Assembly: GCA_963732875.1 (NCBI GenBank)
Contig: CAVTBD010000001.1
Coordinates: 20,780 to 84,779, forward strand
From: an uncultured Alphaproteobacteria bacterium
Lineage (GTDB): Bacteria > Pseudomonadota > Alphaproteobacteria > SMXQ01
Direction: 5' to 3'
Length of the DNA: 64,000 bases
In this document: positions 5,274 to 48,424 of the stretch, piece after piece
How positions within the stretch are numbered: the first letter of the stretch is position 1
How the letters are laid out: the number at the start of each line of letters is the position of its first letter
The notes under the pieces: model-generated
Databases searched by the model: none
Told to the model about the DNA's origin: nothing
Seen by the model: the letters and a program-made list of their open reading frames with translations, nothing else
Position numbers and translations under genes: made by a program

Positions 5274-7593
5274 GGGTCGCCTTGGCGGGCTGGAGCGTCA
5301 CCGCAACCGCGAGCGACACCTTGCCGTCGGGCACGCCCTTGCCGGCGTAAACGTCGAACAGGTCGACCGCGACGATCAGCGCCTTGTCGGCGCCCCGGAT
5401 CGCGCGCACCAGCGCTTCCGCCGCCACGCCCGCGTCCACCACGAAGGCGAAGTCGCGCGCGACCGACTGGAACGGCGAGGGTGCGAACGGCGGCCGGGTC
5501 TTGCCACCCTTCACCTTCGGTTCCGGAATCGCGTCCAGCATCACCTCGAAGCCGACCACCGGGCCCGTCACGTCCATCGCCGCAAGCACGCCCGGATGGA
5601 TCTCGCCGAACGCCGCGAGCACGGTCTTGGGTCCGAGCCGGAGCGTGCCCGAGCGGCCGGGGTGGTACCATTCGGGCGCTTCCGTGAAGGTCTGGAGCGA
5701 GGCCACCGGGGCGCCGCATTCGGCCAGCGCGGCGAGCGCATCGGCCTTCGCGTCGAACGCATCGACCGCGCGGCGTGGTACGGCCCAGTGGCGCGGACCG
5801 GCGGCGCCCGCGCGGATACCGCCCGCCACCAGCGCCTGACCGGCGGGGGTGGCGTCGGCATAGGCCGGGCCGACCTCGAACAGGGCCGCGTCCGGGAAGC
5901 CGCGCGCGGCATTGCGCCCGGCGGCCGCGATCAGGGCCGGCAGGGTCGAGGGCCGCATGTCTGTGAGCTCGGATGAAATCGGGTTGAGCAGCTTGAGCTC
6001 GGCCGCGCCGCCGCCGAACAGCCGGGCTGCGCGGTCATCCACGAACGAGAAGGTGACCGCCTCCAGCAGCCCGCGCGCGGCGAGCGCCCGCTTGGCGAGC
6101 GCGCGGCGGCGCTGGCGCGGGGTCTCGGCGGGCTTGGCGAGCGCCCCGGGGCGCGTGAGCGACACCGACGGAATCGAATCGTAGCCGGCGACGCGCAGCA
6201 CCTCCTCCACCAAGTCGGCGGGGATCGAGACGTCGGCCCGCCACGACGGCACCCGCACGTCGAGGCCGCCCGCGCCAGGCTTCGCCTCGAAGCCGAGCGC
6301 GGTCAGGATCTCGACGATGCGCGCCTCCGGCATGTCGACGCCGCCGCGCCTGTGCACGTCGGCGGGCGCGAAGCGGATCACGGCGTCGCGCACCGGCGCG
6401 GCGCCTGCCACCACCAGCTCGGACGCCTCGCCGCCGCAAATCTCCAGTATCAGCTGCGTCGCCGCCTCGATGCCGTCCTCGGCGGACGCCGGATCGACGC
6501 CGCGCTCGAAGCGGTAGCGCGCGTCCGATTCGATGCCGAGGCGACGCCCGGTGGCGGCGATGGCGGTGGGCTCGAACCACGCGGATTCGAGCAGCACGTT
6601 GACCGTGCCCGCGGTGCAGCCCGACGATTTACCGCCCATGATGCCACCCAAGGACAGTACGCCGTCCGCGTCGGCGATCACCACGGCGCCTTCGCCAAGC
6701 TCGTAGTTGCGCCCGTCGAGGGCCGCGAGCGTCTCGCCCGCACGCGAGAACCGCACGGTGAGGTTGCCGGCGATGGTATCGGCGTCGAACACGTGGAGCG
6801 GGCGGCAGCGGTCCATCAGCATCAGGTTGGTGATGTCCACCAGCGCCGAGATCGGGCGCAGCCCCACGTCGGTGAGCTTCTTCCGGAGCCAGTCCGGGCT
6901 CTCGCAATTCTTCACGCCCCTGATGTAGCGCCCGATGAAATGCGGGCAGGCGACGTTGCCGGCGGGGAAGTCGAGGGCAATCCCGATCGGGCTCTTGAAC
7001 GTGCCCTTGATCTGAGCCGGTATCATTGGGGCGAGCGTGCCGAGGCCGCGCGCGGCGAGGTCGCGGGCGATGCCGCGTATACCGAGGCAGTCGGCCCGGT
7101 TGGGCGTCACCGCGATGTCGATCACCGGCTGGTCGAGGCCGAGCGCGTCCGCCGCCGGGGCACCGATGTGCGCGTCCGCCGCCAGCTCGATGATGCCGGC
7201 ATGGTCGTCGCCGATCTCGAGCTCGCGCGCCGAGCACATCATCCCGGCCGATTCGACGCCGCGTATCTTGGCCTTGCCAAGCGTCACGTCGAGGCCGGGC
7301 ACGTAGCTGCCGGGCGCCGCGAACACGCCCCTGAGGCCCGCGCGCGCGTTGGGCGCGCCGCACACCACCTGCACCGTCTCAGTGCCGGTGTTGACCTTGC
7401 ACACCCTGAGCTTGTCGGCGTCGGGGTGCGGCCCCACCTCGACGATCTCGGCCACCGTGAAGGCGGCGAGCTTCGAGGCGCGGTCGTCGATCCCCTCCAC
7501 CTCGAGGCCGAGCGCGGTGAGCGCGTTGGCGATCTCGGCGACCGAGGCCTTGGTGTCGAGGTGCTCGGCGAGCCAGGCGGGGGTGAACTTCAT
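5191..7593 (-). CDS. pheT: Phenylalanine--tRNA ligase beta subunit
   Basis: 800 aa, [13 protein letters not shown]... B3/B4, tRNA-binding and anticodon-binding domain architecture. Start overlaps the pheS stop. Confidence 0.95.
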
Positions 7594-8667
7594 CGCGCGA
7601 GCCCCCGGGCGAGCGACGGCTGGTCGAGGCAGGCAAAGCCGTAGTGGCGCAGCCAGCGGATGTCGGCGTCGAAGAAGGTCCGCAGGTCAGGGATGCCGTA
7701 CTTGAGCATGGCGATGCGCTCGACCCCCATGCCGAAGGCGAAGCCCTGCCATTCGTCGGGGTCGAGCCCGCAATTGGCGAGCACGTTGGGATGGACCATG
7801 CCGGCGCCGAGAATCTCAAGCCAGCCTTCGCCCGCGCCGATCTTCAACTCGCCACCGCCGCGCGAGCAGCCGATGTCGACCTCGCACGACGGCTCGGTGA
7901 ACGGGAAATAGCTCGGCCGGAAGCGCAGCGGCAGGTCGTCCACCTCGAAATAGGCGCGACAGAAATCCTCAAGGCAACCCTTGAGGTGGCCCATGTGGGT
8001 CGCCCTGTCGATCACCAGCCCCTCGATCTGGTGGAACATGGGCGTGTGGGTCATGTCGGAATCGCAGCGATACGTGCGCCCCGGCGCGATGATGCGGTGC
8101 GGCGCCGGCTTGGTCATCATGGTGCGGATCTGCACCGGCGAGGTATGGGTGCGCAGCAGCATCGGGCGCTCGTCGGCGGCGGGCGGCAGATAGAAGGTGT
8201 CGTGCATCTGCCGCGCGGGATGGGCTTCCGGTATGTTGAGGGCGGTGAAGTTGTGGAAGTCGTCCTCGATGTCGGGGCCTTCCGCCACCTGGAAGCCCAT
8301 GTCGCCGAAGATGGCGACGAGCTCGTCCATGGTCTGGCTGATGGGATGGAGGCGGCCGTCCGCCTCGGGCCGCGCCGGCAGGGTGACGTCGATGCGTTCC
8401 TCGGCAAGCCTTGAGTTCGAGCGCGGCACGGCCGAGCGCGGCCTTGCGCGCCTCGAGCGCGGTCGCGACCGCGTCCTTGACCGCATTGAGCGCCTGGCCC
8501 GCGTCCTTGCGTTGGTCCGCCGGCAGCGCGCCCAGCCCCTTCATGGCCTCGGTGATGGAGCCCTTGCGGCCGAGCGCGGCGACGCGGATCTCCTCCAGCG
8601 CGTCGAGGCTCTCCGCCCCGGCGACCGCCTTCAGAATCCCGGCCCTGAGGGTGTCGGCATCGGCCAT
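7590..8667 (-). CDS. pheS: Phenylalanine--tRNA ligase alpha subunit, with an apparent +/-1 frameshift near 8405-8412
   Basis: N-terminal ([37 protein letters not shown]...) is in ORF 7969..8667. The catalytic core (…[41 protein letters not shown]...) is in ORF 7590..8486. The junction reads ELKA|RLAEERIDV. Confidence 0.85.
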
Positions 8668-8689
8668 GATAGTACTGCGCGTCCCTGAT

Positions 8690-8738
8690 TTCGTTTCGTT
8701 TTTAATAAGACAAAAGGGGCTGTCGAGACAGCCCCTTC
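8690..8738 (-). terminator. Rho-independent terminator between rplT and pheS
   Basis: Minus strand AAGGGGCTGTC-tcg-GACAGCCCCTT followed by TTGTCTTATTAAAAACG. Confidence 0.6.
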
Positions 8739-8777
8739 GTCACTTGAACTTTATATTGGCCGGCGTGGGCTGATCGC

Positions 8778-9140
8778 TTACGCGGCCTGAAGCGCCGCGC
8801 GGGCCTGTTCCACGATGGCCGTAAACGCCGCCGGATCGCGCGCGGCGATGTCGGCGAGCACCTTGCGGTCGAGCTCGATGCCCGAACGCTTGATGCCGTT
8901 CATCAGCTCCGAATAGGTGAGCCCGTTCTCGCGCGCGCCGGCATTGATGCGGCGGATCCACAGCGAGCGGAACTCGCGCTTCTTGGCCTTGCGGTCGCGG
9001 TAGGCGTAGCGCAGGCCCTTCTCGACCTTCTCGATGGCGATACGATAGCAGTCGCTGGCGCGACCGCGGTAGCCGGAGGCGAGATCGAGGATCTTCTTGT
9101 GGCGGGCGTGTGTGGTGACGCCCCTCTTGACGCGTGCCAT
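8778..9140 (-). CDS. rplT: 50S ribosomal protein L20
   Basis: [35 protein letters not shown]..., about 120 aa. Confidence 0.95.
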
Positions 9141-9151
9141 GGGTCTCTTCC

Positions 9152-9349
9152 TTAGGCGTAGGGGAGGAACTGCTTGATGATGTTGGCGTCGCCCTTGGCC
9201 AGGATGAAGGTGCCGCGTGCGGTACGCTTCATCTTCTGGGAGCGCTTGCGCAGGTTGTGGCGCTTGTAGGCCACGTTGCCGCGCACCTTGCCGGTGCCGG
9301 TGGTGCGGAAGCGCTTCTTGGCGCCGCTCTTGGACTTCAGCTTCGGCAT
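9152..9349 (-). CDS. rpmI: 50S ribosomal protein L35
   Basis: [42 protein letters not shown]..., 65 aa. Confidence 0.95.
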
Positions 9350-9583
9350 TGCCGGGAATCCTCGGGATTACGGTCGAAATACGGCCCGCCACCGGCCGGC
9401 CCCATGGCCGCCGGGCGGAGCGCAGGGTTATAGCGGGGACCGCCCCGGAATGCAAGGCCCCCCGGGCTGCCCAGGGCCACCCCGGGACGGCCGGGCCCCG
9501 GAATCCGCCGCCAAGGCTGTCCCGGCTCTCGACCCCGAATACATCTTGCGCTACAAGAACTTAGGAATCCTCGGGAATCCCGC

Positions 9584-11395
9584 ATGAAATCGTCCCTCCG
9601 TTCCGTCCCGGCGGTGGCGCGCGACGCGTTCCGCGCGCTGCGGCTCCGCTATACCTCCCTGCGCCGCACCGTGCGCAACTACGAGACCGGCCTGATCGCC
9701 TGCTGCGTGGTGGTGGGGGTCGTGGTCGGCCTCGTGACGGTCGGCCTGCGCGACCTCGTCTATTTCCTGCACCGGCTGGATTTCGCCCTGCCCGGCCACG
9801 CCTATCTCAGCGCCCAGACCAGCCTCGACCTCCTGCGGCTGGCCGTGGTGCCGGCGGCGGGCGGACTGTTGCTCGGGCTGTTGACCCTCGCCCTCCGGAA
9901 AATCCGGCCCAACGACATCGTCGATCCGGTCGAGGCCAACGCGCTCTACGGCGGCCAGATGTCGCTGCGCGACAGCATGCGGCTCACCGGCTACACGGTG
10001 GTGTCCAATGCCTGCGGCGCCTCGGTCGGTATGGAGGCCGGCTACAGCCAGCTCGGCGCCGGCATCTTCTCCGTGGTCGGGCGCTACTTCCACCTGCGCC
10101 GCGAGGACCAGCGCATGATGGTGACGGCGGGTGCCGCGGCGGCGATCTCGGCCGCCTTCAACGCGCCGCTGGCCGGCGCCTTCTACGGCTTCGAGCTGAT
10201 CCACGGCAGCTACACCACGCGGGCGCTCGCCCCGGTCACCGCCGCGTCGCTGGCGGGCGCGCTGGTGGTGCGCCTGCTCGGCACCGACCAGCCGCTGTTC
10301 GAGGTCGCCGGTCGCTTCGTGATCCCGCACTGGTACTACCTGCTGTTCGGGCTGCTCGGCATCGCCGCCGCCGGGCTCGGCATCCTCACCATGAAGAGCG
10401 CGACCTGGATCGAACGCCTGCTGCGCGCGACCCGCCTGCCCACCTGGCTGCGGCCCGCCGCGGGCGGTGTGATCCTGAGCCTGATCGCGCTCGGCTCGCC
10501 CCAGGTGCTCGGCAGCGGCCATGGCGCGATCCAGTGGCACCTCGACACCCAATGGACCTTCACCGCGCTGGCGCTCCTGCTCATGGGCAAGCTGGTGGCC
10601 TCGGCGGTCTCGCTCGGCGCCGGTTACCGCGGCGGCCTGTTCTCCTCATCGCTGTTCCTGGGCGCGCTGCTCGGCGCCACCTTCGTGCAGGCCATCGACC
10701 TCGCGCTGCCGTCGCTGGTGGACCAGCGTACCGTCTTCATGCTGGTCGGCATGGGCTCGGTCGGCGCGGCGATCATCGGCGCGCCCTTCACCATGGTGTT
10801 CCTGGTGCTGGAAGCGACCGGCAGCTTCCCGGTGACGCTCGGCATGCTGGTGGGCGTGGTGCTGGCCGCGACCATCGTGCGGCTCACCTTCGGCTATTCG
10901 TTCTCGACCTGGCGCTTCCACCTGCGCGGCCTGCCACTGCGCGGCGGCCACGACATCGGCTGGATCGCCGGCCTGACGGCCGGGCGCCTGATGCGCTCGG
11001 ACGCGAAGACCGTCCCGGCCGGCATGACCCTCGCCGGCCTGCGCCAGACGGTGCCGCTCGGCAGCAGGAAGTGGGCCTTCGCGGTGGACGATACCGGACG
11101 CTACGTCGGCATGATCGACATCGCCGCCGCCCACGACCACGACCTCGACGACGTCGCCGCCAACCTGATCGCGGCCGACCTCGCCACGGGGCGCAGCAGC
11201 TACATGCTGCCCGGCGACAACATCCGCACCATCCTTCAGCAGTTCGGCGACGCCCAGGCGGAGACCCTGCCGGTGCTGAGCTCGGAGGCCGAGCCGCGCA
11301 TCCTCGGCTATCTGACGGAGGCCTTCTGTCTCAAGCGCTATGCCCAGGAGCTGGAACGGCGTCGGCGCGACGAGCTCGGCATGGCCGAGCTCTAG
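9584..11395 (+). CDS. ClC-family voltage-gated anion channel/antiporter with C-terminal CBS domains; non-canonical selectivity-filter motifs
   Basis: GAAAAISAAFNAPLAGAFYGFELI is the ClC hallmark. The gating Glu is present in GASVGMEAG (canonical GREGP). The GSGIP serine motif is absent (region ...RPNDIVDPVEANALYGGQMS...). GxFxP reads GYRGGLFSSS. CBS-like tail (GRYVGMIDIAAAH...). Confidence 0.8.
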   Translation: MKSSLRSVPAVARDAFRALRLRYTSLRRTVRNYETGLIACCVVVGVVVGLVTVGLRDLVYFLHRLDFALPGHAYLSAQTSLDLLRLAVVPAAGGLLLGLLTLALRKIRPNDIVDPVEANALYGGQMSLRDSMRLTGYTVVSNACGASVGMEAGYSQLGAGIFSVVGRYFHLRREDQRMMVTAGAAAAISAAFNAPLAGAFYGFELIHGSYTTRALAPVTAASLAGALVVRLLGTDQPLFEVAGRFVIPHWYYLLFGLLGIAAAGLGILTMKSATWIERLLRATRLPTWLRPAAGGVILSLIALGSPQVLGSGHGAIQWHLDTQWTFTALALLLMGKLVASAVSLGAGYRGGLFSSSLFLGALLGATFVQAIDLALPSLVDQRTVFMLVGMGSVGAAIIGAPFTMVFLVLEATGSFPVTLGMLVGVVLAATIVRLTFGYSFSTWRFHLRGLPLRGGHDIGWIAGLTAGRLMRSDAKTVPAGMTLAGLRQTVPLGSRKWAFAVDDTGRYVGMIDIAAAHDHDLDDVAANLIAADLATGRSSYMLPGDNIRTILQQFGDAQAETLPVLSSEAEPRILGYLTEAFCLKRYAQELERRRRDELGMAEL

Positions 11396-11412: not shown

Positions 11413-13176
11413 TCAGTAGACGTCGCGCACGTAGCGACCGCTCGCCACCATCTGGTCGACCTCGACCGCGGCGGCGGCGTCCGACATGCCGCCCTCGCGG
11501 GCGACGATGGCGCGCAGCGCCCGGTCCACATCCTTGGCCATGCGGCTCGCGTCGCCGCACACGTAGAAATGCGCGCCCCCGGCGAGCCAGTTCCACAGGG
11601 CGGCGGCGTTCTCGGCCATGCGGTGCTGGACGTAGAGCTTTTCCTTGCCGTCGCGCGAGAACGCGAGGTCGAGGCGCGTGAGCGTGCCGTCGGCGAGGAA
11701 GCCCTCGAGTTCCTCACGATAGAGAAAGTCGGTGGCGCGATGACGGTCGCCGAACAACAGCCAGGCCGGACCGGGGACGCCCGCCGCGCGGCGCTCCTCG
11801 AGGAAGGCGCGGAACGGCGCGATGCCGGTGCCGGGACCGACCATGATGACCGGCGTCGCCGGATCGGCTGGCAGGCGGAAGCGCCCGTTGCGCTGGACGT
11901 AGACCCGGACCGGGCCGGCGCCGGCGCGATCGGCGAGGTAGGTCGAGCCGATGCCGACGCGGTCGCGCCCGTGGCTCGCGTAGCGCACCGCGGCGACGGT
12001 GAGATGGACTTCGCCCGGGTGCGCGCGCGGGCTCGACGAGATCGAGTAGAGCCGGGGCGCGAGACGCGGCAGGATCGCCACCAGGTCCTGGGGCTGGGCG
12101 AGCACGCCGGGATAGCGCAGCACCAGGTCGATCACGTCGCGGCCGTAGAGCCAGTCCGCGAGGTCGGCGCTGCGCTCGGGCGCGAGCAGGGCCGAGAGCG
12201 TGGCGTCGCCCGCGCGCGCGGCGAACTTGATGACGGTCGGCTGGGTCAGGCGCCCGATCGAGAGCCGACGCGCGAGCGCCGCGCCGAGCGGCAGGGTGCC
12301 GTCGAGCGTCACCCGGGCATCCGGGTCAAAGCCGGCCGCGGCGAGCAGCGCCTCCACCATCGCGGGCGGATTTTCGACCACCACGCCGAGCGCGTCGCCG
12401 GGCTCGTAGGCGACGCCGGTGCCCTCCAGCGACAGCGCGATGTGGCGCACGTCCTTGTCGGAACCGGGCGCGGTGAGCGGGCGGTTGTCGATCACCGGCG
12501 CCGCCACCGGGTTGGCGCGCGTGCCGGGCGCGTCTTCCGGTTCTTCGTCGGGGACCGCCACCACGGCAGGCGGCCCTTTATCGGCGACACCGGCCTCGGC
12601 GGCAAACGTCTCCAGCATGGCGTCGCGCCACGGCGCGAACGGCGGGGCGGGGTCGCCATCGACGTCGACACGGGCGGCGAGCCGCCGGGCGCCGAGCGCG
12701 GCGAAACGTTGGTCGAGGAACGCGCCGTAGCCGCAGAACTGCAGGTAGTTGGAATCGCCGAGCGCCAGCAACGCATAGGACAGGCCCGCGAGCGGCGCGC
12801 CTTCGGCGGCGGCAAGATCGTCGCTCACGCGGCGCGCGCTGTCGGGCGGCTCGCCTTCGCCGTGGGTGGCGGCAATCACCACCGCGTGGCCAAGCGCGCC
12901 GAGCTCTTCCAGGGTCAGCGTGCCGATGTCGCGCGCCGTGGCGTCGAAGCCGCGCCCCTTCGCCGCGCGGGCGAACTTGCGCGCGAGCCCCTCGGCGGTG
13001 CCGGTCTGGGAGGCGTAGAGCACCGCGAGCGGGACCGCCGGCGCGGGCGCCTCCGCCGCCTCCGGCGGCGTCAGCAGCGCCGCGAGGAAACCCGACAGCC
13101 AGGCACGCTGCTCGCGCGTGAACGGCGCGTCGTCGGGGATCAGCGGGATTTCGCGGAGCGGCGCGGGCACGGCCAC
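11413..13176 (-). CDS. Sulfite/nitrite reductase [NADPH] flavoprotein component (CysJ-like diflavin reductase)
   Basis: Flavodoxin domain (LAVLYASQTGTAEGLA...), FAD site RLYSISSSP and NADPH site GPGTGIAPFRAF. A ~45-aa N-terminal extension carries the motif APFTREQRAWLSGFLAALL. Confidence 0.8.
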   Translation of the reverse strand: MAVPAPLREIPLIPDDAPFTREQRAWLSGFLAALLTPPEAAEAPAPAVPLAVLYASQTGTAEGLARKFARAAKGRGFDATARDIGTLTLEELGALGHAVVIAATHGEGEPPDSARRVSDDLAAAEGAPLAGLSYALLALGDSNYLQFCGYGAFLDQRFAALGARRLAARVDVDGDPAPPFAPWRDAMLETFAAEAGVADKGPPAVVAVPDEEPEDAPGTRANPVAAPVIDNRPLTAPGSDKDVRHIALSLEGTGVAYEPGDALGVVVENPPAMVEALLAAAGFDPDARVTLDGTLPLGAALARRLSIGRLTQPTVIKFAARAGDATLSALLAPERSADLADWLYGRDVIDLVLRYPGVLAQPQDLVAILPRLAPRLYSISSSPRAHPGEVHLTVAAVRYASHGRDRVGIGSTYLADRAGAGPVRVYVQRNGRFRLPADPATPVIMVGPGTGIAPFRAFLEERRAAGVPGPAWLLFGDRHRATDFLYREELEGFLADGTLTRLDLAFSRDGKEKLYVQHRMAENAAALWNWLAGGAHFYVCGDASRMAKDVDRALRAIVAREGGMSDAAAAVEVDQMVASGRYVRDVY

Positions 13177-13177
13177 G

Positions 13178-14956
13178 TCACGAGGCCTCGCCGGTGGCGA
13201 TGGCGGCCAGTGCCGCCGCGTCCTGGCGGCCCGCGAAGGCGGCGAAGTCCTCGCCCTGGCGGCGCCCGTCCTTGTAGGCGCCGAGCAGGCGCGCGAGCGC
13301 CGCCGGCACCGCGTCGGCGGGCAGGCCCTTGGCGATCTCGCGCGCGAGCGCGCGTCCCTGGTCGGAGCCGCCGCCGAGATAAAGATGGTAGCCCTCGACG
13401 GTGCCGCCCTCGCCCGCCACCTGCACGCCGAGCAGCCCGATGTCGCCGATGTAGTGCTGGGCGCAGGAATTGGGGCAGCCGGTGAGGTGGATGTTGACCG
13501 GGCTGTCGAGCGCGACCGCGCGGTCGAGGTGCTTGCGGATGGCGAGCGCGTGGCCCTTGGTGTCGGTCATGGCGAACTTGCAGCCGGTGTTGCCGGTGCA
13601 GGCCACCAGCCCGGCCGAGGCCGAGCTCGCGCGGATGTCGAAGCCCATCGCCCGGACCTTGCGCTCGACCGTGGAGAGCTTTTCGTCGGGCACGTCGGGC
13701 AGGATCACGTTCTGCCACACGGTCAGGCGCAGCTCGCCCGAGCCGCACTCCTCGGCGAGCTCGGCGATCTTGTCCATCTGGGCCGCCGTCATGCGTCCCA
13801 CGGGAATCGCGATGCCGACGTAGCTCAGGCCCGGCGCCTTCTGGGTATAGACACCGACATGGCCGTGGCGGATGACGGCGCGCGGCGGCAAACAATCCGT
13901 GAGAGCGAGCCTTCGCAGCGGAAAGGCGAGCCTGGCCTCGGTCGCGGCCAGGAACGCGTCCATGCCGATGCGGTCGATCAGGAAGCGCAGGCGCGCCTTC
14001 TTGCGGTCGGTGCGGTCGCCCCGGTCGGCGAACACCCGGATCATGGCGGCGGCGGCGGCGACGCATTCCTCGGGCGCAACGATGATCCCCGCGTCCTCGG
14101 CGAAGAAACGGTGGCCGGTGATGCCCCCCAGCATCACGCGGAACCACACGCCGGGCGCGATGCCCTTGCCGTCGGGCACGCGCACCGCCTGGAAGCCGAT
14201 GTCGTTGGTGTCGGACACCACGCTGACGCTGCCGCCCGAATCGAACGCCACGTTGAACTTGCGCGGCAGGCCGAACAGGTCGCGGTTGTTGGCGAGGTAG
14301 AACTGCAGCCCCTGGGCGAGCGGCCGCACGTCGTAGAGCTCGGCCGGGTCGATGCCGGACGTCGGCGTCGCGGTGATGTTGCGCACGTTGTCGGCGCCGG
14401 CCCCGCGCGAGGTGAGCCCGGCGTTGGACAGCGCCATCAGCACGTTGACGATGTCGTGCGGCGCGAATTCGCGCAGCTGCACGTTGCCGCGCGTGGTCAC
14501 GTCGCCGTAGTCGTTGCCCCAGCGGCGCGCGATCTCGGCGAGCGCGCGCATCTGCACGGCCGTGATTATGTTTCCCGGCACGCGCACGCGCACCATGAAC
14601 GAGTCCTGCGCCGGCGCTACGTAGAACAGGCCGTGGAACTTGAAGCGGAACACGTCGCCGCCCTCGGGCGGGGTATCGGTGGCGGCGTGGTGCAGGATCT
14701 TGTCCCAGATGTCGAGCGGGTTGTGCTCGAGCTTGAGGCGCTCCTCGCGGGTGAGCTCGTCGAGCGGCACGCCGAACGCGGTCTTGCCCTCGGGCGGGCC
14801 CGCGAGGTTGGCGGGCGCTGCCCCCGGCTCGTGGGTCAGGCGCCCGTCGGCGCCCTCCCCCACGAACGGCACCATCCCGCGGGCGCGCAGGCCCGCCGCG
14901 TAGCCTTCCAGGTACTCCTTCTGCGCCTTGGTGAAGGGCACGATCTCGGCACTCAT
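13178..14956 (-). CDS. Siroheme/[4Fe-4S] nitrite/sulfite reductase hemoprotein (CysI/NirA-like)
   Basis: 592 aa with the Cys cluster ...CTGNTGCKFA...TGCPNSCAQ, two NiR/SiR ferredoxin-like half-domains and the N-terminal motif VPFTKAQKEYLEGYAAGL. Confidence 0.8.
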   Translation of the reverse strand: MSAEIVPFTKAQKEYLEGYAAGLRARGMVPFVGEGADGRLTHEPGAAPANLAGPPEGKTAFGVPLDELTREERLKLEHNPLDIWDKILHHAATDTPPEGGDVFRFKFHGLFYVAPAQDSFMVRVRVPGNIITAVQMRALAEIARRWGNDYGDVTTRGNVQLREFAPHDIVNVLMALSNAGLTSRGAGADNVRNITATPTSGIDPAELYDVRPLAQGLQFYLANNRDLFGLPRKFNVAFDSGGSVSVVSDTNDIGFQAVRVPDGKGIAPGVWFRVMLGGITGHRFFAEDAGIIVAPEECVAAAAAMIRVFADRGDRTDRKKARLRFLIDRIGMDAFLAATEARLAFPLRRLALTDCLPPRAVIRHGHVGVYTQKAPGLSYVGIAIPVGRMTAAQMDKIAELAEECGSGELRLTVWQNVILPDVPDEKLSTVERKVRAMGFDIRASSASAGLVACTGNTGCKFAMTDTKGHALAIRKHLDRAVALDSPVNIHLTGCPNSCAQHYIGDIGLLGVQVAGEGGTVEGYHLYLGGGSDQGRALAREIAKGLPADAVPAALARLLGAYKDGRRQGEDFAAFAGRQDAAALAAIATGEAS

Positions 14957-14987: not shown

Positions 14988-15836
14988 TCATTCGGCCGGG
15001 GACATCCCTGCGGGCACCGCCGGCGCCGGCTGCGGCTTGACCTTGGGCGCCATGCCGCGATGGGTCAGGTAGATGGCGAAGCCGGTGAAGGTGAAGCCGC
15101 CGACGATGTTGCCGAGCGTCACCGGGATCTGGTTCCACAGCCACCAGTCGCCGAAGCCGACCTTGGCGCCGAGCAGCATCCCGGTCGGGATCACGAACAT
15201 GTTGACCACCGAATGCTCGAAGCCTTGCGCGAAGAACACCACGATCGGCAGCCACGCGGCGGCGATCTTGCCGACCGTGGAGGCCGACGTCATGCCCATG
15301 ACGACGCCGAGGCACACCATCCAGTTGCACAGGATCGCCTTGACGAAGCAGGTCACCAGGCCGGCCATGCCGAGATGCTCGTAGCCCAGCGTCTTGGCCT
15401 GCGCGATGGCGATGATTTTGGCCGCGATCGGGTCGGGCGCGCCCGCCGTGCCCATCTTGGAGATGGCGATGGCGTAGAGCCCGGCGTAGATCAGCGCGCC
15501 GATCAGGTTGCCGAGAAACACCCAGCTCCAGTTGACGAGCACCTGGAACGGGCTCGCCTTGCCCTCCAGCCAGGCGAGCGGCACCAGGGCGAAGCTGCCG
15601 GTGACCAGCTCGAGGCCGAGCAGCACGATCATCACGAAGCCTACCGGGAAGATCACGGCGCCGACGATCGGCTGGTCAGTCTGCACGATGGCGCCGATGG
15701 CGAGGCTGGTGGCGAACCCGAGGATCGCGCCCGACAGTGCGCCGCGGATGAGCAGGTCGCGCACCGGCAGGCCGATCTTCTTGATGCCGGCATCGACCAT
15801 CGTGTCGGCGACCTCGTTTGGCTTCATGTAGTCCAT
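14988..15836 (-). CDS. Formate/nitrite transporter (FNT) family channel; NirC/HSC/FocA-like
   Basis: MDYMKPNEVADT... with FNT signature regions (FPVGFVMIVLLGLELVTGSF, CNWMVCLGV). First gene of the FNT-cysI-cysJ-like operon. Confidence 0.8.
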   Translation of the reverse strand: MDYMKPNEVADTMVDAGIKKIGLPVRDLLIRGALSGAILGFATSLAIGAIVQTDQPIVGAVIFPVGFVMIVLLGLELVTGSFALVPLAWLEGKASPFQVLVNWSWVFLGNLIGALIYAGLYAIAISKMGTAGAPDPIAAKIIAIAQAKTLGYEHLGMAGLVTCFVKAILCNWMVCLGVVMGMTSASTVGKIAAAWLPIVVFFAQGFEHSVVNMFVIPTGMLLGAKVGFGDWWLWNQIPVTLGNIVGGFTFTGFAIYLTHRGMAPKVKPQPAPAVPAGMSPAE

Positions 15837-16118
15837 AACACCCCTCCCGCGGGTGGCAGCGCGCCCGCGTCGCATGAGACAGGAACAGTCCTGCCTTCAG
15901 GTATTCAAGGGGCGTGCCAGTTCACGGAGGGGACGGTGGCGCGCGGACGGGCGCGGGCGCGCCCGGCATAAACGCGATCCGCGGCGCGGGAACTGCCTCA
16001 AAGCGTGCAGCACCCCGTCAAAATTTGTGCAGTGCCCCGAAACGACGGCGCCGGCCCCAAGGGACCGGCGCTGCGAATGCGGAGCGGGAACGCGGGCGCG
16101 TCAGAACCTGTTTAGTTT

Positions 16119-16881: not shown

Positions 16882-18856
16882 TTACCCACTGGTCGCGGTT
16901 TGTGAAGGCACCTGCGCCTCTTCGGCAAGTCTAGCGCGCGCTTCATCGAGCGCAAGCGATTCTTGCGCGGTCGAGCCGAGACGGCGCACCGCGACCGTGC
17001 GCTGCTCGGCCTCGCGCCGGCCGATCGCGAGGATCACCGGCACTTTGGCGAGGGAATGCTGGCGCACCTTGTAGCCGATCTTTTCGTTGGTGAGGTCGAG
17101 CTCGACCCGGAGCCCGGCCGCGCGCAAGGCGTGCGCCACCTCGCGGGCATAGGAATCGCCGTCGTTGGTGATGGTGGCGATGACCACCTGCACCGGCGCG
17201 AGCCACAGCGGGAACGCGCCGGCGTAGTGCTCCACCAGGATGCCGATGAAGCGCTCGAACGAGCCCAGGATGGCGCGGTGCAGCATCACCGGGCGGTGGC
17301 GTCCGCCGTCCTCGCCGGTATAGGCGGCGTCGAGCCGCTCGGGCAGCACGAAGTCCACCTGCAGCGTGCCGCACTGCCAGTCGCGGCCGATGGCGTCGCG
17401 CAGCACGAACTCGAGCTTGGGCCCGTAGAACGCGCCCTCGCCCGGGTTGAGGATGGTCTCGAGCCCGGCGGCGGCGACCGCCTCCTTGAGCGCGCCCTCG
17501 GCGCGGTCCCAGATGTCGTCGCTGCCGGCGCGCGTCTCGGGCCGGTCGGAGAACTTCACCACGACTTCCGCAAAGCCGAAGTCCTGGTAGACGGCTGAGC
17601 AGCAGGTCGCAGAACGCCTTGGTCTCGGACGTGATCTGGTCCTCGGTGCAGAAGATATGGGCGTCGTCCTGGGTGAAGGCACGCACGCGCATGATGCCGT
17701 GCAGCGCGCCCGAGGGCTCGTAGCGGTGGCACGAGCCGAACTCGGCCATGCGCAGCGGCAGGTCGCGGTAGCTCTTGATGCCCTGGCGGAAGATCTGCAC
17801 GTGGCACGGGCAGTTCATCGGCTTGATGGCGAGCACGCGCTCGCCTTCGCTCTTCTTCGCTTCCTCGGAGCGCGGCGAGGCCGTGAACATGGCGTCGCCG
17901 AACTTCTCCCAGTGGCCCGACTGCTCCCACAGCACGCGGTCCACCAGCATCGGCGTCTTGACCTCGACGTAGCCCGAGGCTTCGAGCCGGCCGCGGATGT
18001 AGTTCTCGACCGTGCGATAGAGCGTCCAGCCCTTGGGGTGCCAGAACACGCTGCCGACCGCGAGCTCCTGGACGTGGAACAGGTCCATCTCGCGCCCCAA
18101 ACGACGATGGTCGCGGCGCTCGGCCTCCTCCAGCCGGTGCAGGTAGTCGGCCAGGTCCTTGTCGCTGGCCCAGGCGGTGCCGTAGATGCGCTGCAGCATC
18201 TCGTTGCGCGAATCGCCGCGCCAGTAGGCGCCGGCCAGCTTCATCAGCTTGAACGCCTTGCCGAGCTTGCCGGTGGACGGCAGGTGCGGCCCGCGGCACA
18301 GGTCGATGAAGTCGCCCTGGCGGTAGAGCGTCACGTCCTCGGCGGCCGGGATCGATTCGATGATCTCGGCCTTGTAGTGCTCGCCCTGGTCCTTGAAGAA
18401 CTGGACCGCCCGGTCGCGGTTCCACACCTCGCGTTCGATCCCCTCGTCGCGCGCGACGATCTCCTTCATGCGCGCCTCGATCTTCTCGAGGTCCTCGGGC
18501 GTGAACGGCTCGGCGCGCGAGAAGTCGTAGTAGAAGCCGTTCTCGATGGCGGGACCGATGGTGACCTGGGTCTCGGGATAGAGCTCCTTGACCGCCTCGG
18601 CCATGACATGGGCCGCGTCGTGGCGGATCAGCTCCAGCGCCTCGAGCCCGCTCTTGGGCGTGACGATCTCGATGCGCGCGTCGGCCTCGATCGGGCGCGC
18701 GAGGTCCCGCATCACCCCGTCGACCTTGACGGCAAGCGCGGCCTTGGCGAGGCCCGGACCGATGGCGGCCGCGACCTCGGCGCCGGTGGTCCCGCGCGCG
18801 ACCTTGCGCGAGGAGCCGTCGGGCAGCGTCAGCGTGATCTCAGCCATATCGTCCAA
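16882..18856 (-). CDS. thrS: Threonine--tRNA ligase, with an apparent frameshift near 17600-17610
   Basis: N-terminal ~400 aa in ORF 16943..18856 (TGS, editing and catalytic motifs ...[26 protein letters not shown]). C-terminal anticodon-binding domain in ORF 16882..17682 (...[14 protein letters not shown]...). Junction ...[11 protein letters not shown]|AVYQDFGF. Confidence 0.85.
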
Positions 18857-38063: not shown

Positions 38064-38150
38064 GCCCAGGTGGCGGAATTGGTAGACGCGCTAGTTTCAG
38101 GTACTAGTGGGCGAAAGCTCGTGGAAGTTCGAGTCTTCTCCTGGGCACCA
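38064..38150 (+). tRNA. tRNA-Leu (anticodon CAG), CCA encoded
   Basis: Cloverleaf GCCCAGG/CCTGGGC acceptor, anticodon stem CTAGT/ACTAG, loop TTCAGGT, long variable arm, T-loop TTCGAGT. Confidence 0.9.
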
Positions 38151-48348: not shown

Positions 48349-48424
48349 TGGTGGAGCCGAGGGGAATCGAACCCCTGACCTCGTGAATGCCATTCACGCG
48401 CTCTCCCAACTGAGCTACGGCCCC
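48349..48424 (-). tRNA. tRNA-Ala (anticodon GGC), CCA encoded
   Basis: GGGGCCGTAGCTCAGTTGGGAGAGCGCGTGAATGGCATTCACGAGGTCAGGGGTTCGATTCCCCTCGGCTCCACCA, with the G3:U70 identity pair. Confidence 0.9.

Follow-up and report, generated by a model that had tools for sequence, protein, structure and literature searches.

Background

The alpha8-beta4 sulfite reductase has been known for fifty years, but the structure and the logic of the N-terminal assembly domain of its flavoprotein (SiRFP, CysJ) have yet to be resolved. In Escherichia coli, SiRFP residues 1-52 are necessary and sufficient for the formation of an ultra-stable octamer. The peptide, for which a helix-turn-helix is predicted, is joined to the rest of the protein by a flexible tether, and assembly is disrupted by substitutions at Gln22, Tyr39, Phe40 and Gln47 (Walia et al., bioRxiv 10.64898/2026.04.08.717228). 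The same preprint, which gives no structure, calls the peptide idiosyncratic, and neither conservation nor copies on hemoproteins are discussed in it ('conserv' and 'nitrite' have zero occurrences in its text). Here we describe a short helical motif that is shared by the N-termini of a NirA-family hemoprotein and of the CysJ-like diflavin reductase encoded next to it. Both genes lie in a 64,000-nucleotide stretch of DNA from an uncultured alphaproteobacterium (GenBank assembly GCA_963732875.1, contig CAVTBD010000001.1, positions 20,780 to 84,779), which is referred to below as the window.

Two other described interactions are relevant for comparison. The N-terminal 80 residues of the E. coli sulfite reductase hemoprotein (SiRHP, CysI) bind the FNR domain of SiRFP by means of loops and helix 4 (PDB 9c91), and most of these residues pack on the hemoprotein itself (PMC11195156). 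NasN, the mycobacterial diflavin nitrate reductase, is described in PMC7816997 (citing Tan et al. 2020) as a monomeric, NADPH-dependent, assimilatory enzyme.

Results

Related helices at two N-termini

The motif occupies residues 6-24 of NirA (VPFTKAQKEYLEGYAAGLR, nucleotides 14885-14941, minus strand) and residues 17-35 of the reductase (APFTREQRAWLSGFLAALL, nucleotides 13072-13128, minus strand). Both peptides had been pointed out in an earlier analysis of the letters of this DNA (the sequence-only reading), whose coordinates agree with ours to within one codon. They share the pattern F-T-x-x-Q-[KR]-x-[YW]-L-x-G-[FY]-x-A-x-L over a helix of about 18 residues. Local alignment of PFTREQRAWLSGFLAAL with PFTKAQKEYLEGYAAGL gave a BLOSUM62 score of 47, which was equalled by 10 of 20,000 shuffles, and the motif pair ranked first among the 326,606 ungapped 19-mer pairs that can be formed between the two proteins. 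Two-sequence BLASTP of the N-termini reported no match, because the match is too short for BLAST; Smith-Waterman alignment with shuffles and profile-profile comparison were therefore used. Profiles built from 102 (NirA) and 114 (reductase) non-identical homologue segments matched in hhalign with a probability of 98% (E = 1.2e-13, 26 columns), a match somewhat favoured by the anchoring of the segments with a regular expression. A combined motif hidden Markov model (HMM) gave 49-50 bits on NirA and the reductase and less than 5 bits on all other stop-to-stop open reading frames (ORFs) of the window. The shared motif is real and goes beyond chance.

In the AlphaFold2 model of NirA residues 10-25 form a helix with predicted local distance difference test (pLDDT) values of about 65-81, and the segment that follows, about 40 residues ahead of the core, is mostly coil (pLDDT 67-80). 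The NirA helix is amphipathic (hydrophobic moment 0.43, top 4% of shuffles). For the reductase helix the moment was not significant against shuffles, and this analysis was weakly informative overall. On inspection of the sequence neither copy had an RR motif or a contiguous hydrophobic core.

The two N-termini lie outside the known parts of both proteins. The likeness of NirA to the solved plant nitrite reductases begins at residue 103 and its alignment to E. coli SiRHP at residue 230, and the reductase matches the E. coli SiRFP chain 6efv (E = 1.2e-114) from residue 49 on. Among solved homologues none spans NirA residues 1-102 or reductase residues 1-48, and with Pfam at E <= 1 neither N-terminus was covered by any model. 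The concern that the motif might be a standard strand of the flavodoxin fold did not hold: it is located outside that domain, which by Pfam starts at residue 52, after a tether rich in proline and alanine.

Two family-specific flavours

The motif is carried by all but six among the 120 best homologues of each protein, and four of the six exceptions are truncated or have mis-called starts. Over about 230 homologues and the 80 related loci described below it hardly varies. It was found, then, in the orthologues, a point on which the sequence-only reading had made its proposal depend. That reading had called the copies near-identical, a description which has to be revised, since they are of two distinct flavours, each specific to one family. 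In the 102 NirA homologues the columns of what we call the N-type helix are F (80%), T/S, x, E, Q (100%), K (97%), E (88%), Y (99%), L (88%), x, G (100%), F/Y (97%), x, A (86%), G (95%) and L, and ten residues further on there is a P-F-V-G element (P 92%, F 78%, V 59%, G 84%). The J-type helix, in the 114 reductase homologues, reads L, L, P (100%), x, D (75%), A (96%), P (100%), F (100%), T/S, P, x, Q (100%), R (97%), A (94%), W (99%), L (98%), N, G (96%), F (92%), F/L, A, G/A, L and L. The two flavours can be recognized by the signatures QKEYLxGF on NirA and LPxDAPFxxxQRAWLNGFF on the reductase. The distinguishing columns, K-E-Y in NirA and R-A-W in the reductase, are nearly fixed within each family, a pattern that is expected of complementary partners. 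The window reductase, like the motif-bearing reductase ORFs of all related loci, has one copy of the motif.

Co-occurrence on neighbouring genes

A genome scan yielded 80 loci from Alpha-, Beta- and Gammaproteobacteria, Acidobacteriota and Verrucomicrobiota, in which neighbours within 8 kb were considered. The motif was present on the NirA ORF in 77 of the 80 loci and on a neighbouring flavoprotein ORF likewise in 77. The motif-bearing partner was mostly located immediately downstream of NirA, with four loci in which it was upstream. Loci that lacked the motif on one side were accounted for by truncated genes, degenerate copies (L052, L080), short contigs and locus L008, which is considered below. 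A molybdopterin nitrate reductase was encoded within 8 kb of NirA in 54 of the 80 loci and an FNT (formate/nitrite transporter) homologue in 18. The nitrite/sulfite reductases of Deinococcus, Cytobacillus and Planctomyces, which served as controls, aligned only from about residue 62 and belong to sulfate-assimilation clusters; they had no motif and no flavoprotein neighbour within 8 kb.

The genetic context of one plasmid-borne cluster of Methylocystis bears on function. It comprises genes for an ANTAR regulator and an NrtA-like sensor (NasST-like), nrtABC, an FAD oxidoreductase, nirA, a 'sulfite reductase subunit alpha' and nitrate reductase. The location of the NirA/reductase pair inside a nitrate-assimilation cluster makes nitrite reduction its likely function. 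Flp of Bradyrhizobium japonicum was considered as an already known counterpart of the reductase and rejected, since flp is needed for growth on nitrate and not on nitrite, and NirA was assumed there to be ferredoxin-dependent. By description alone, Flp can be equated with the motif-free 'FAD-dependent oxidoreductase' (Pyr_redox_2) upstream of NirA in Methylocystis.

In a plasmid locus of Sulfitobacter pontiacus (L083, NZ_CP139705, 1424..4955) both helices are degenerate together: in NirA (FNAEQQEYLVTVLSGL) the invariant G-F is lost, and in the partner (QRHWLNGLLSGL) F-F has become L-L. These may represent a co-evolving pair on a mobilizable plasmid.

The J-type helix precedes different carrier domains

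In the window reductase the J-type helix stands ahead of a flavodoxin-FNR arrangement, and other carriers were found elsewhere. In two Verrucomicrobia loci, L059 (9747..10331) and L072 (9723..10340), the helix is part of a stand-alone flavodoxin of 195-206 residues that is encoded downstream of NirA and begins IPD(N/D)APFTxAQRxWLKG(Y/F); no FNR domain was found within 8 kb in either locus. On the plasmid of Methylocystis sp. MJC1 (L082, NZ_CP107559, 10749..12338) the helix is followed by a putative Fe-S domain (PF04060, CGQCGYNC...C) and by FNR, with no flavodoxin. This PRK06214-type gene lies between nirA and the gene of a motif-free nitrate reductase that has a BFD [2Fe-2S] tail. The Methylobacterium partner has a J-type helix and an FNR match, and it gave no flavodoxin match, its middle region not having been scanned. 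The J-type helix always precedes a one-electron carrier domain, be it the flavodoxin of a larger protein, a flavodoxin-only protein or an FeS domain.

The window reductase resembles the NF004859/PRK06214 proteins in its J-type N-terminus, since its first 48 residues alone matched positions 8-44 of that profile (E = 4.5e-11), and in the location of the gene downstream of a NirA-family gene. It differs from them in the carrier, which is a flavodoxin in the window protein and a putative Fe-S domain (PF04060) in theirs.

Comparison with the E. coli assembly peptide

Residues 29-51 of E. coli K-12 CysJ scored 16.7 bits on the J-type profile, as compared with 8.1 for the best of 5000 shuffles. The same register, with an offset of nine residues, was obtained from NF008197 and NF004859. 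In this register Tyr39 and Phe40 of the E. coli protein correspond to F30 and L31 of the window reductase, at the conserved F-F/L positions. The E. coli peptide and the J-type helix have further features in common. Both are N-terminal to the flavodoxin and are separated from it by a flexible tether rich in alanine and proline (in the window protein the motif spans residues 12-35 and the tether residues 36-49, with Flavodoxin_1 starting at 52), the E. coli sequence pattern agrees with the J-type consensus TPEQRAWLNGFFAGLL, and the critical Tyr39/Phe40 pair falls on the conserved G-F-F positions. Judged by sequence, the J-type helix and helix 2 of the N-terminal peptide of E. coli CysJ are one and the same element, which in the window reductase has a single-helix form.

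There are also differences. A helix-turn-helix in one chain is predicted for E. coli SiRFP, which forms a homo-octamer, whereas the window reductase has a single helix with proline-rich residues ahead of it. Moreover, the window hemoprotein bears a second, distinct flavour of the helix, of which E. coli CysI has none. The E. coli CysI segment 'ESNYLRGTIAEDL' was considered as a possible N-type helix and was rejected, as the motif HMM gave no match to CysI. The N-terminus of E. coli SiRHP is comparable with that of NirA in being an extension of a siroheme hemoprotein which is absent from ferredoxin-dependent homologues and which, in NirA by our reading, is dedicated to the binding of a diflavin reductase. 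The two extensions have no sequence relationship, and the E. coli interface is not a helix matching the reductase's own N-terminus.

Helix 1 of E. coli CysJ (residues 10-24; L001, 5100..6899, minus strand) resembles the start of the J-type element, LLPxDAPFxPEQRAWL; on the profiles a score was obtained for helix 2 alone. Given this resemblance, the two E. coli helices may have arisen by duplication within the peptide, or they may be a degenerate helix pair in one chain.

Both flavours in one chain

In locus L029 the C-terminus of a molybdopterin nitrate reductase is followed by two copies of the motif. In homologues of this tail the Molydop_binding domain is followed by a variable linker, an N-type helix (e.g. 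GPFTPAQKEYLQGFLTGLL), about 12 residues containing LPxxAPF, and a J-type helix (e.g. APFNAAQRSWLSGLLAGAL); some of the proteins stop after the J-type helix, others run on into a flavodoxin. The first helix of the tail scored better on the NirA profile (19-36 bits) and the second on the reductase profile (26-36 bits).

A profile of the two-helix unit matched 476 clusters (50% identity, E <= 0.001) among 1.84 billion representatives. In the typed full-length matches the unit had one of two positions. In NasN-type fusions it stood between Molydop_binding and Flavodoxin_1, and in diflavin reductases such as P0320 and P0331 both helices were N-terminal. The NasN-type order is Molybdop_Fe4S4, Molybdopterin, Molydop_binding, two helices, Flavodoxin_1, FAD_binding_1 and NAD_binding_1, with the unit at residues 776-831 of 1400 in P0270 and at 761-816 of 1131 in another fusion. 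When the helices were assigned to the better-scoring profile, the order was N-J in 24 proteins, J-J in eight and J-N in none. AlphaFold2 predicted helices at residues 138-154 and 173-191 of P0243 with pLDDT values of 82-90, higher than anywhere else in the model; a linker predicted to be disordered (pLDDT below 50) lies between the catalytic domain and the helix pair. Two further matches of the two-helix profile had no Pfam domain: P0354 (1754 residues), whose nine short matching stretches may be a low-complexity artefact, and P0375 (642 residues), which reads EKRYLRGFLAGL...APFERRHALWVDGMLAGMF and then continues in apparently frameshifted sequence.

The mycobacterial NasN-type diflavin nitrate reductase has the same helix pair as the window proteins and is NADPH-dependent and assimilatory, as the window enzyme probably is. 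It differs in that both helices are in one polypeptide, reported as monomeric, while in the window they are distributed over two polypeptides, N-terminal in both, and the acceptor is a siroheme nitrite reductase.

In further loci, too, N-type helices are found on acceptor enzymes and J-type helices on donors. Locus L084 encodes a NirA with an N-type helix (55 bits), a flavodoxin/FNR protein with a J-type helix (42 bits) and a nitrate reductase (NasA) with a C-terminal N-type helix (27 bits). In L045 NasA ends with ...PQPFSLEQKEFLQALFAGVMR, a C-terminal N-type helix, and the same locus encodes NirA (N-type) and a CysJ-like protein (J-type). L070 (4050..7958) encodes a 1303-residue fusion of NasA, flavodoxin and FNR whose only helix is of the J-type; the next gene downstream is for a NirA that has the N-type. 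In this case one reductase may serve nitrate reduction in its own chain and nitrite reduction in trans.

Discussion

Proposed docking and its alternatives

We favour the interpretation, and consider it fairly probable, that the shared motif is a modular docking helix with two complementary flavours, the N-type packing against the J-type in trans. A docking role of the plug-and-socket kind appears the most likely, because the helix matches the peptide by which E. coli sulfite reductase self-assembles. The docking or oligomerisation role, one of the options put forward in the sequence-only reading, has gained support from the alignment to the E. coli SiRFP peptide, from the co-occurrence on partner proteins in the 80 loci and from the side-by-side fusion of the helices in nitrate reductases. 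In the reductase the J-type helix (LPxDAPF-x3-QRAWLNGFFAGLL) comes just before the domain that carries single electrons, linked to it by a short flexible tether, and the N-type helix (F-T/S-x-E-QKEYL-x-GF-x-AGL) is on the electron-accepting enzyme, here at the N-terminus of NirA. In the proposed mechanism the two would pack in trans as a helix pair in a heterodimer or in a larger bundle like the E. coli octamer, and the pair would reproduce the helix-loop-helix of the single chains of NasA tails, NasN and E. coli CysJ. Such a pair would hold the FMN domain, on its 14-residue tether, close to the siroheme enzyme, and electrons would pass from NADPH through FAD and FMN to the [4Fe-4S] cluster and siroheme and finally to nitrite. 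We infer a direct N-J contact, the stoichiometry of the complex and a requirement of the helices for activity. The reported monomeric state of NasN, a protein with both helices, argues that the pair can satisfy itself one-to-one.

Several observations weigh against this interpretation, in addition to the anchoring of the profile segments mentioned above. The likeness to E. coli CysJ is short: the J-type profile gives it 16.7 bits, the combined motif HMM only about 7-9.5. In E. coli the hemoprotein is bound through another interface, the SiRHP N-terminus on the FNR domain (PMC11195156), and by analogy a second interface of this kind may be present here as well. The pLDDT of the NirA helix is moderate (65-81 in AlphaFold2), and the helix may therefore pack on NirA's own body in the free protein. 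Locus L008 (Verrucomicrobiota, 7002..9752) encodes FNT and a NirA with a good N-type helix, but a flavoprotein partner is missing from the 8 kb around it; of the 80 loci, it alone clearly departs from adjacency. Most NasA proteins of the related loci have no helix, so that it is no universal tag. Covariation between NirA and partner (77 pairs) was uninformative, the core columns being nearly invariant.

An arrangement in which each helix only self-associates and the subunits meet elsewhere, for example through NirA residues 26-100 on the FNR domain as in E. coli sulfite reductase, would draw on the facts that the E. coli peptide homo-octamerises by itself and that SiRHP uses its own N-terminal 80 residues to bind the FNR domain, away from the octamerisation core; the conserved 40-residue linker of NirA with its PFVG element could be such an interface. 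We regard this arrangement as unlikely, since it leaves unexplained the strict family-specific difference between KEY and RAW, the adjacency of the helices in single chains, where the N-type never follows the J-type, and the presence of J-type helices on a stand-alone flavodoxin or an FeS-FNR protein next to a tagged NirA. NasN, with both helices in one chain and yet described as monomeric (PMC7816997), also speaks against it. Less probable still is that the NirA helix serves as an intramolecular cap which packs on the enzyme's own domains, its resemblance to the reductase helix being due to ancestry or convergence without a shared function. The helix and the next 40 residues are predicted with intermediate pLDDT and are not disordered, as would befit a cap, and most of the N-terminal 80 residues of E. 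coli SiRHP do pack on the hemoprotein itself. However, the N-type helix is also found at the C-terminus of molybdopterin nitrate reductases, which have an unrelated fold, after a disordered linker; it therefore behaves as a portable module and not as part of the NirA fold. Besides, the NirA homologues without an N-type helix are also without a flavoprotein partner.

The sequence-only reading had offered two more possibilities, a targeting signal common to both subunits and a membrane-binding helix. Both copies in the window are N-terminal and the NirA helix is amphipathic, which would fit such a role, but in other proteins the two-helix unit is internal (in the 1400- and 1131-residue fusions described above) or the helix is C-terminal (NasA), neither a twin-arginine motif nor the build of a signal peptide is present, the amphipathicity of the reductase helix is not significant, and the homologous E. 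coli peptide forms a soluble octamer. We see hardly any room for the targeting signal, and the membrane helix likewise has to be judged unlikely.

A wider generalization can be put forward, although we rate its chances as somewhat below even: the N- and J-type helices might be a general two-part 'plug and socket' code by which one NADPH-reductase hub is wired to different assimilatory terminal reductases. The octamerisation domain of E. coli SiRFP, for which an explanation has long been wanting, and the NasN linker would be one-chain versions of it. The hub would be a diflavin, FeS-FNR or flavodoxin-only protein; NirA would be connected by its N-terminus and NasA by its C-terminus, both as acceptors. 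Were this the case, helix swaps would re-route electron flow, and a hetero-pair of this kind would explain the assembly of stoichiometric reductase-hemoprotein complexes.

The locus points away from the idiosyncratic peptide described for E. coli and towards a core helix that is an ancient, portable module, occurs in at least four phyla and has a complementary partner helix on electron acceptors. The two halves occur split (NirA and reductase), fused in tandem (NasA tails, NasN linkers) or on minimal carriers (the lone flavodoxin). In the literature searched we found no description of a nitrite reductase composed of NirA and a CysJ-type protein, of the shared motif, of the complementary helix borne by the hemoprotein and by nitrate reductases, of the split-versus-fused distribution, or of the NasN linker helices. 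The docking proposal offers a direct, testable hypothesis for the recruitment of the reductase by NADPH-dependent nitrite reductases of the NirA type, which are widespread and have hardly been characterised. In addition, it supplies natural variants of the sequence that structural studies of the assembly domain could use, and a candidate pair of small tags for hetero-association.

Genes of the locus

The features of the locus are listed in Table 1.

Table 1. Genes and N-terminal elements of the FNT-nirA-reductase locus, numbered along the window
Feature	Position	Strand	Basis or remark
FNT (formate/nitrite transporter) gene	14988..15875	minus	PF01226, E = 1.3e-68
NirA-family siroheme/[4Fe-4S] hemoprotein, 592 residues	13178..14956	minus	NF007126; two NIR_SIR and two NIR_SIR_ferr domains
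CysJ-like NADPH diflavin reductase, 587 residues	11413..13176	minus	Flavodoxin_1 (residues 52-177), FAD_binding_1, NAD_binding_1
N-type helix, NirA F8-A25 (FTKAQKEYLEGYAAGLRA)	14882..14935	minus	motif HMM 49.3 bits; AlphaFold2 helix
NirA linker, residues 26-65	14762..14881	minus	between N-type helix and catalytic core; conserved P-F-V-G at 30-33
J-type element, reductase L12-L35 (LIPDDAPFTREQRAWLSGFLAALL)	13072..13143	minus	counterpart of E. coli CysJ residues ~28-44
Pro/Ala-rich tether, reductase T36-P49 (TPPEAAEAPAPAVP)	13030..13071	minus	between J-type helix and flavodoxin domain; read from sequence

The genes of FNT, NirA and the CysJ-like protein are adjoining and co-directional. The FNT gene is the first of an apparent operon, with nitrite uptake as its probable role. 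The NirA ORF is preceded by a GGAGG Shine-Dalgarno sequence 7 nucleotides upstream of its ATG, and the GTG start of the reductase is one nucleotide past the TGA stop of NirA, which suggests translational coupling of the two. Upstream of the operon, Rfam at the gathering threshold detected no known leader or riboswitch.

The hemoprotein had been called CysI-like in the sequence-only reading; this assignment has to be changed. The ORF scored 798.6 bits on NF007126 ('NirA family protein', PRK09567; cut-off 523), residues 7-589 aligning to profile positions 6-589, and its first 57 residues alone matched profile positions 6-40 (E = 0.0042). It stayed below the cut-offs of both CysI models (150.5 vs 756.55 for TIGR02041 and 183.2 vs 457 for NF010029) as well as below that of ferredoxin-nitrite reductase (NF007125, 400.5 vs 594). 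The hemoprotein is the electron acceptor and probably an assimilatory nitrite reductase.

The reductase is CysJ-like and not a CysJ equivalog, as it scored under both equivalog cut-offs (548.6 vs 668.15 for TIGR01931 and 452.4 vs 838 for NF008197). It passed the cut-off of NF004859 (PRK06214, 'sulfite reductase subunit alpha'; 466.9 vs 432) through two matches, one at its N-terminus and one over the FNR region. Its middle part is a flavodoxin, where the PRK06214-type protein of Methylocystis has the PF04060 FeS domain. The reductase is the electron donor of a probable NADPH-driven nitrite reductase.

An ORF of 603 residues similar to ClC-type chloride channels (9584..11395, plus strand) runs towards the reductase gene and meets it tail to tail across a gap of 18 nucleotides, with no evident functional link. 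Rfam at the gathering threshold detected only two tRNA genes in the window, at 38064..38147 (plus strand) and 48352..48424 (minus strand). The threonyl-tRNA synthetase gene (16882..18856, minus strand) has an apparent frameshift near 17,640-17,680: the ORF 16943..18856 encodes the synthetase for about 405 residues and then arginine-rich nonsense, the true C-terminal part being in the ORF 16882..17682 in another frame. Either the break stems from an error in sequencing or assembly, or the gene is really disrupted.

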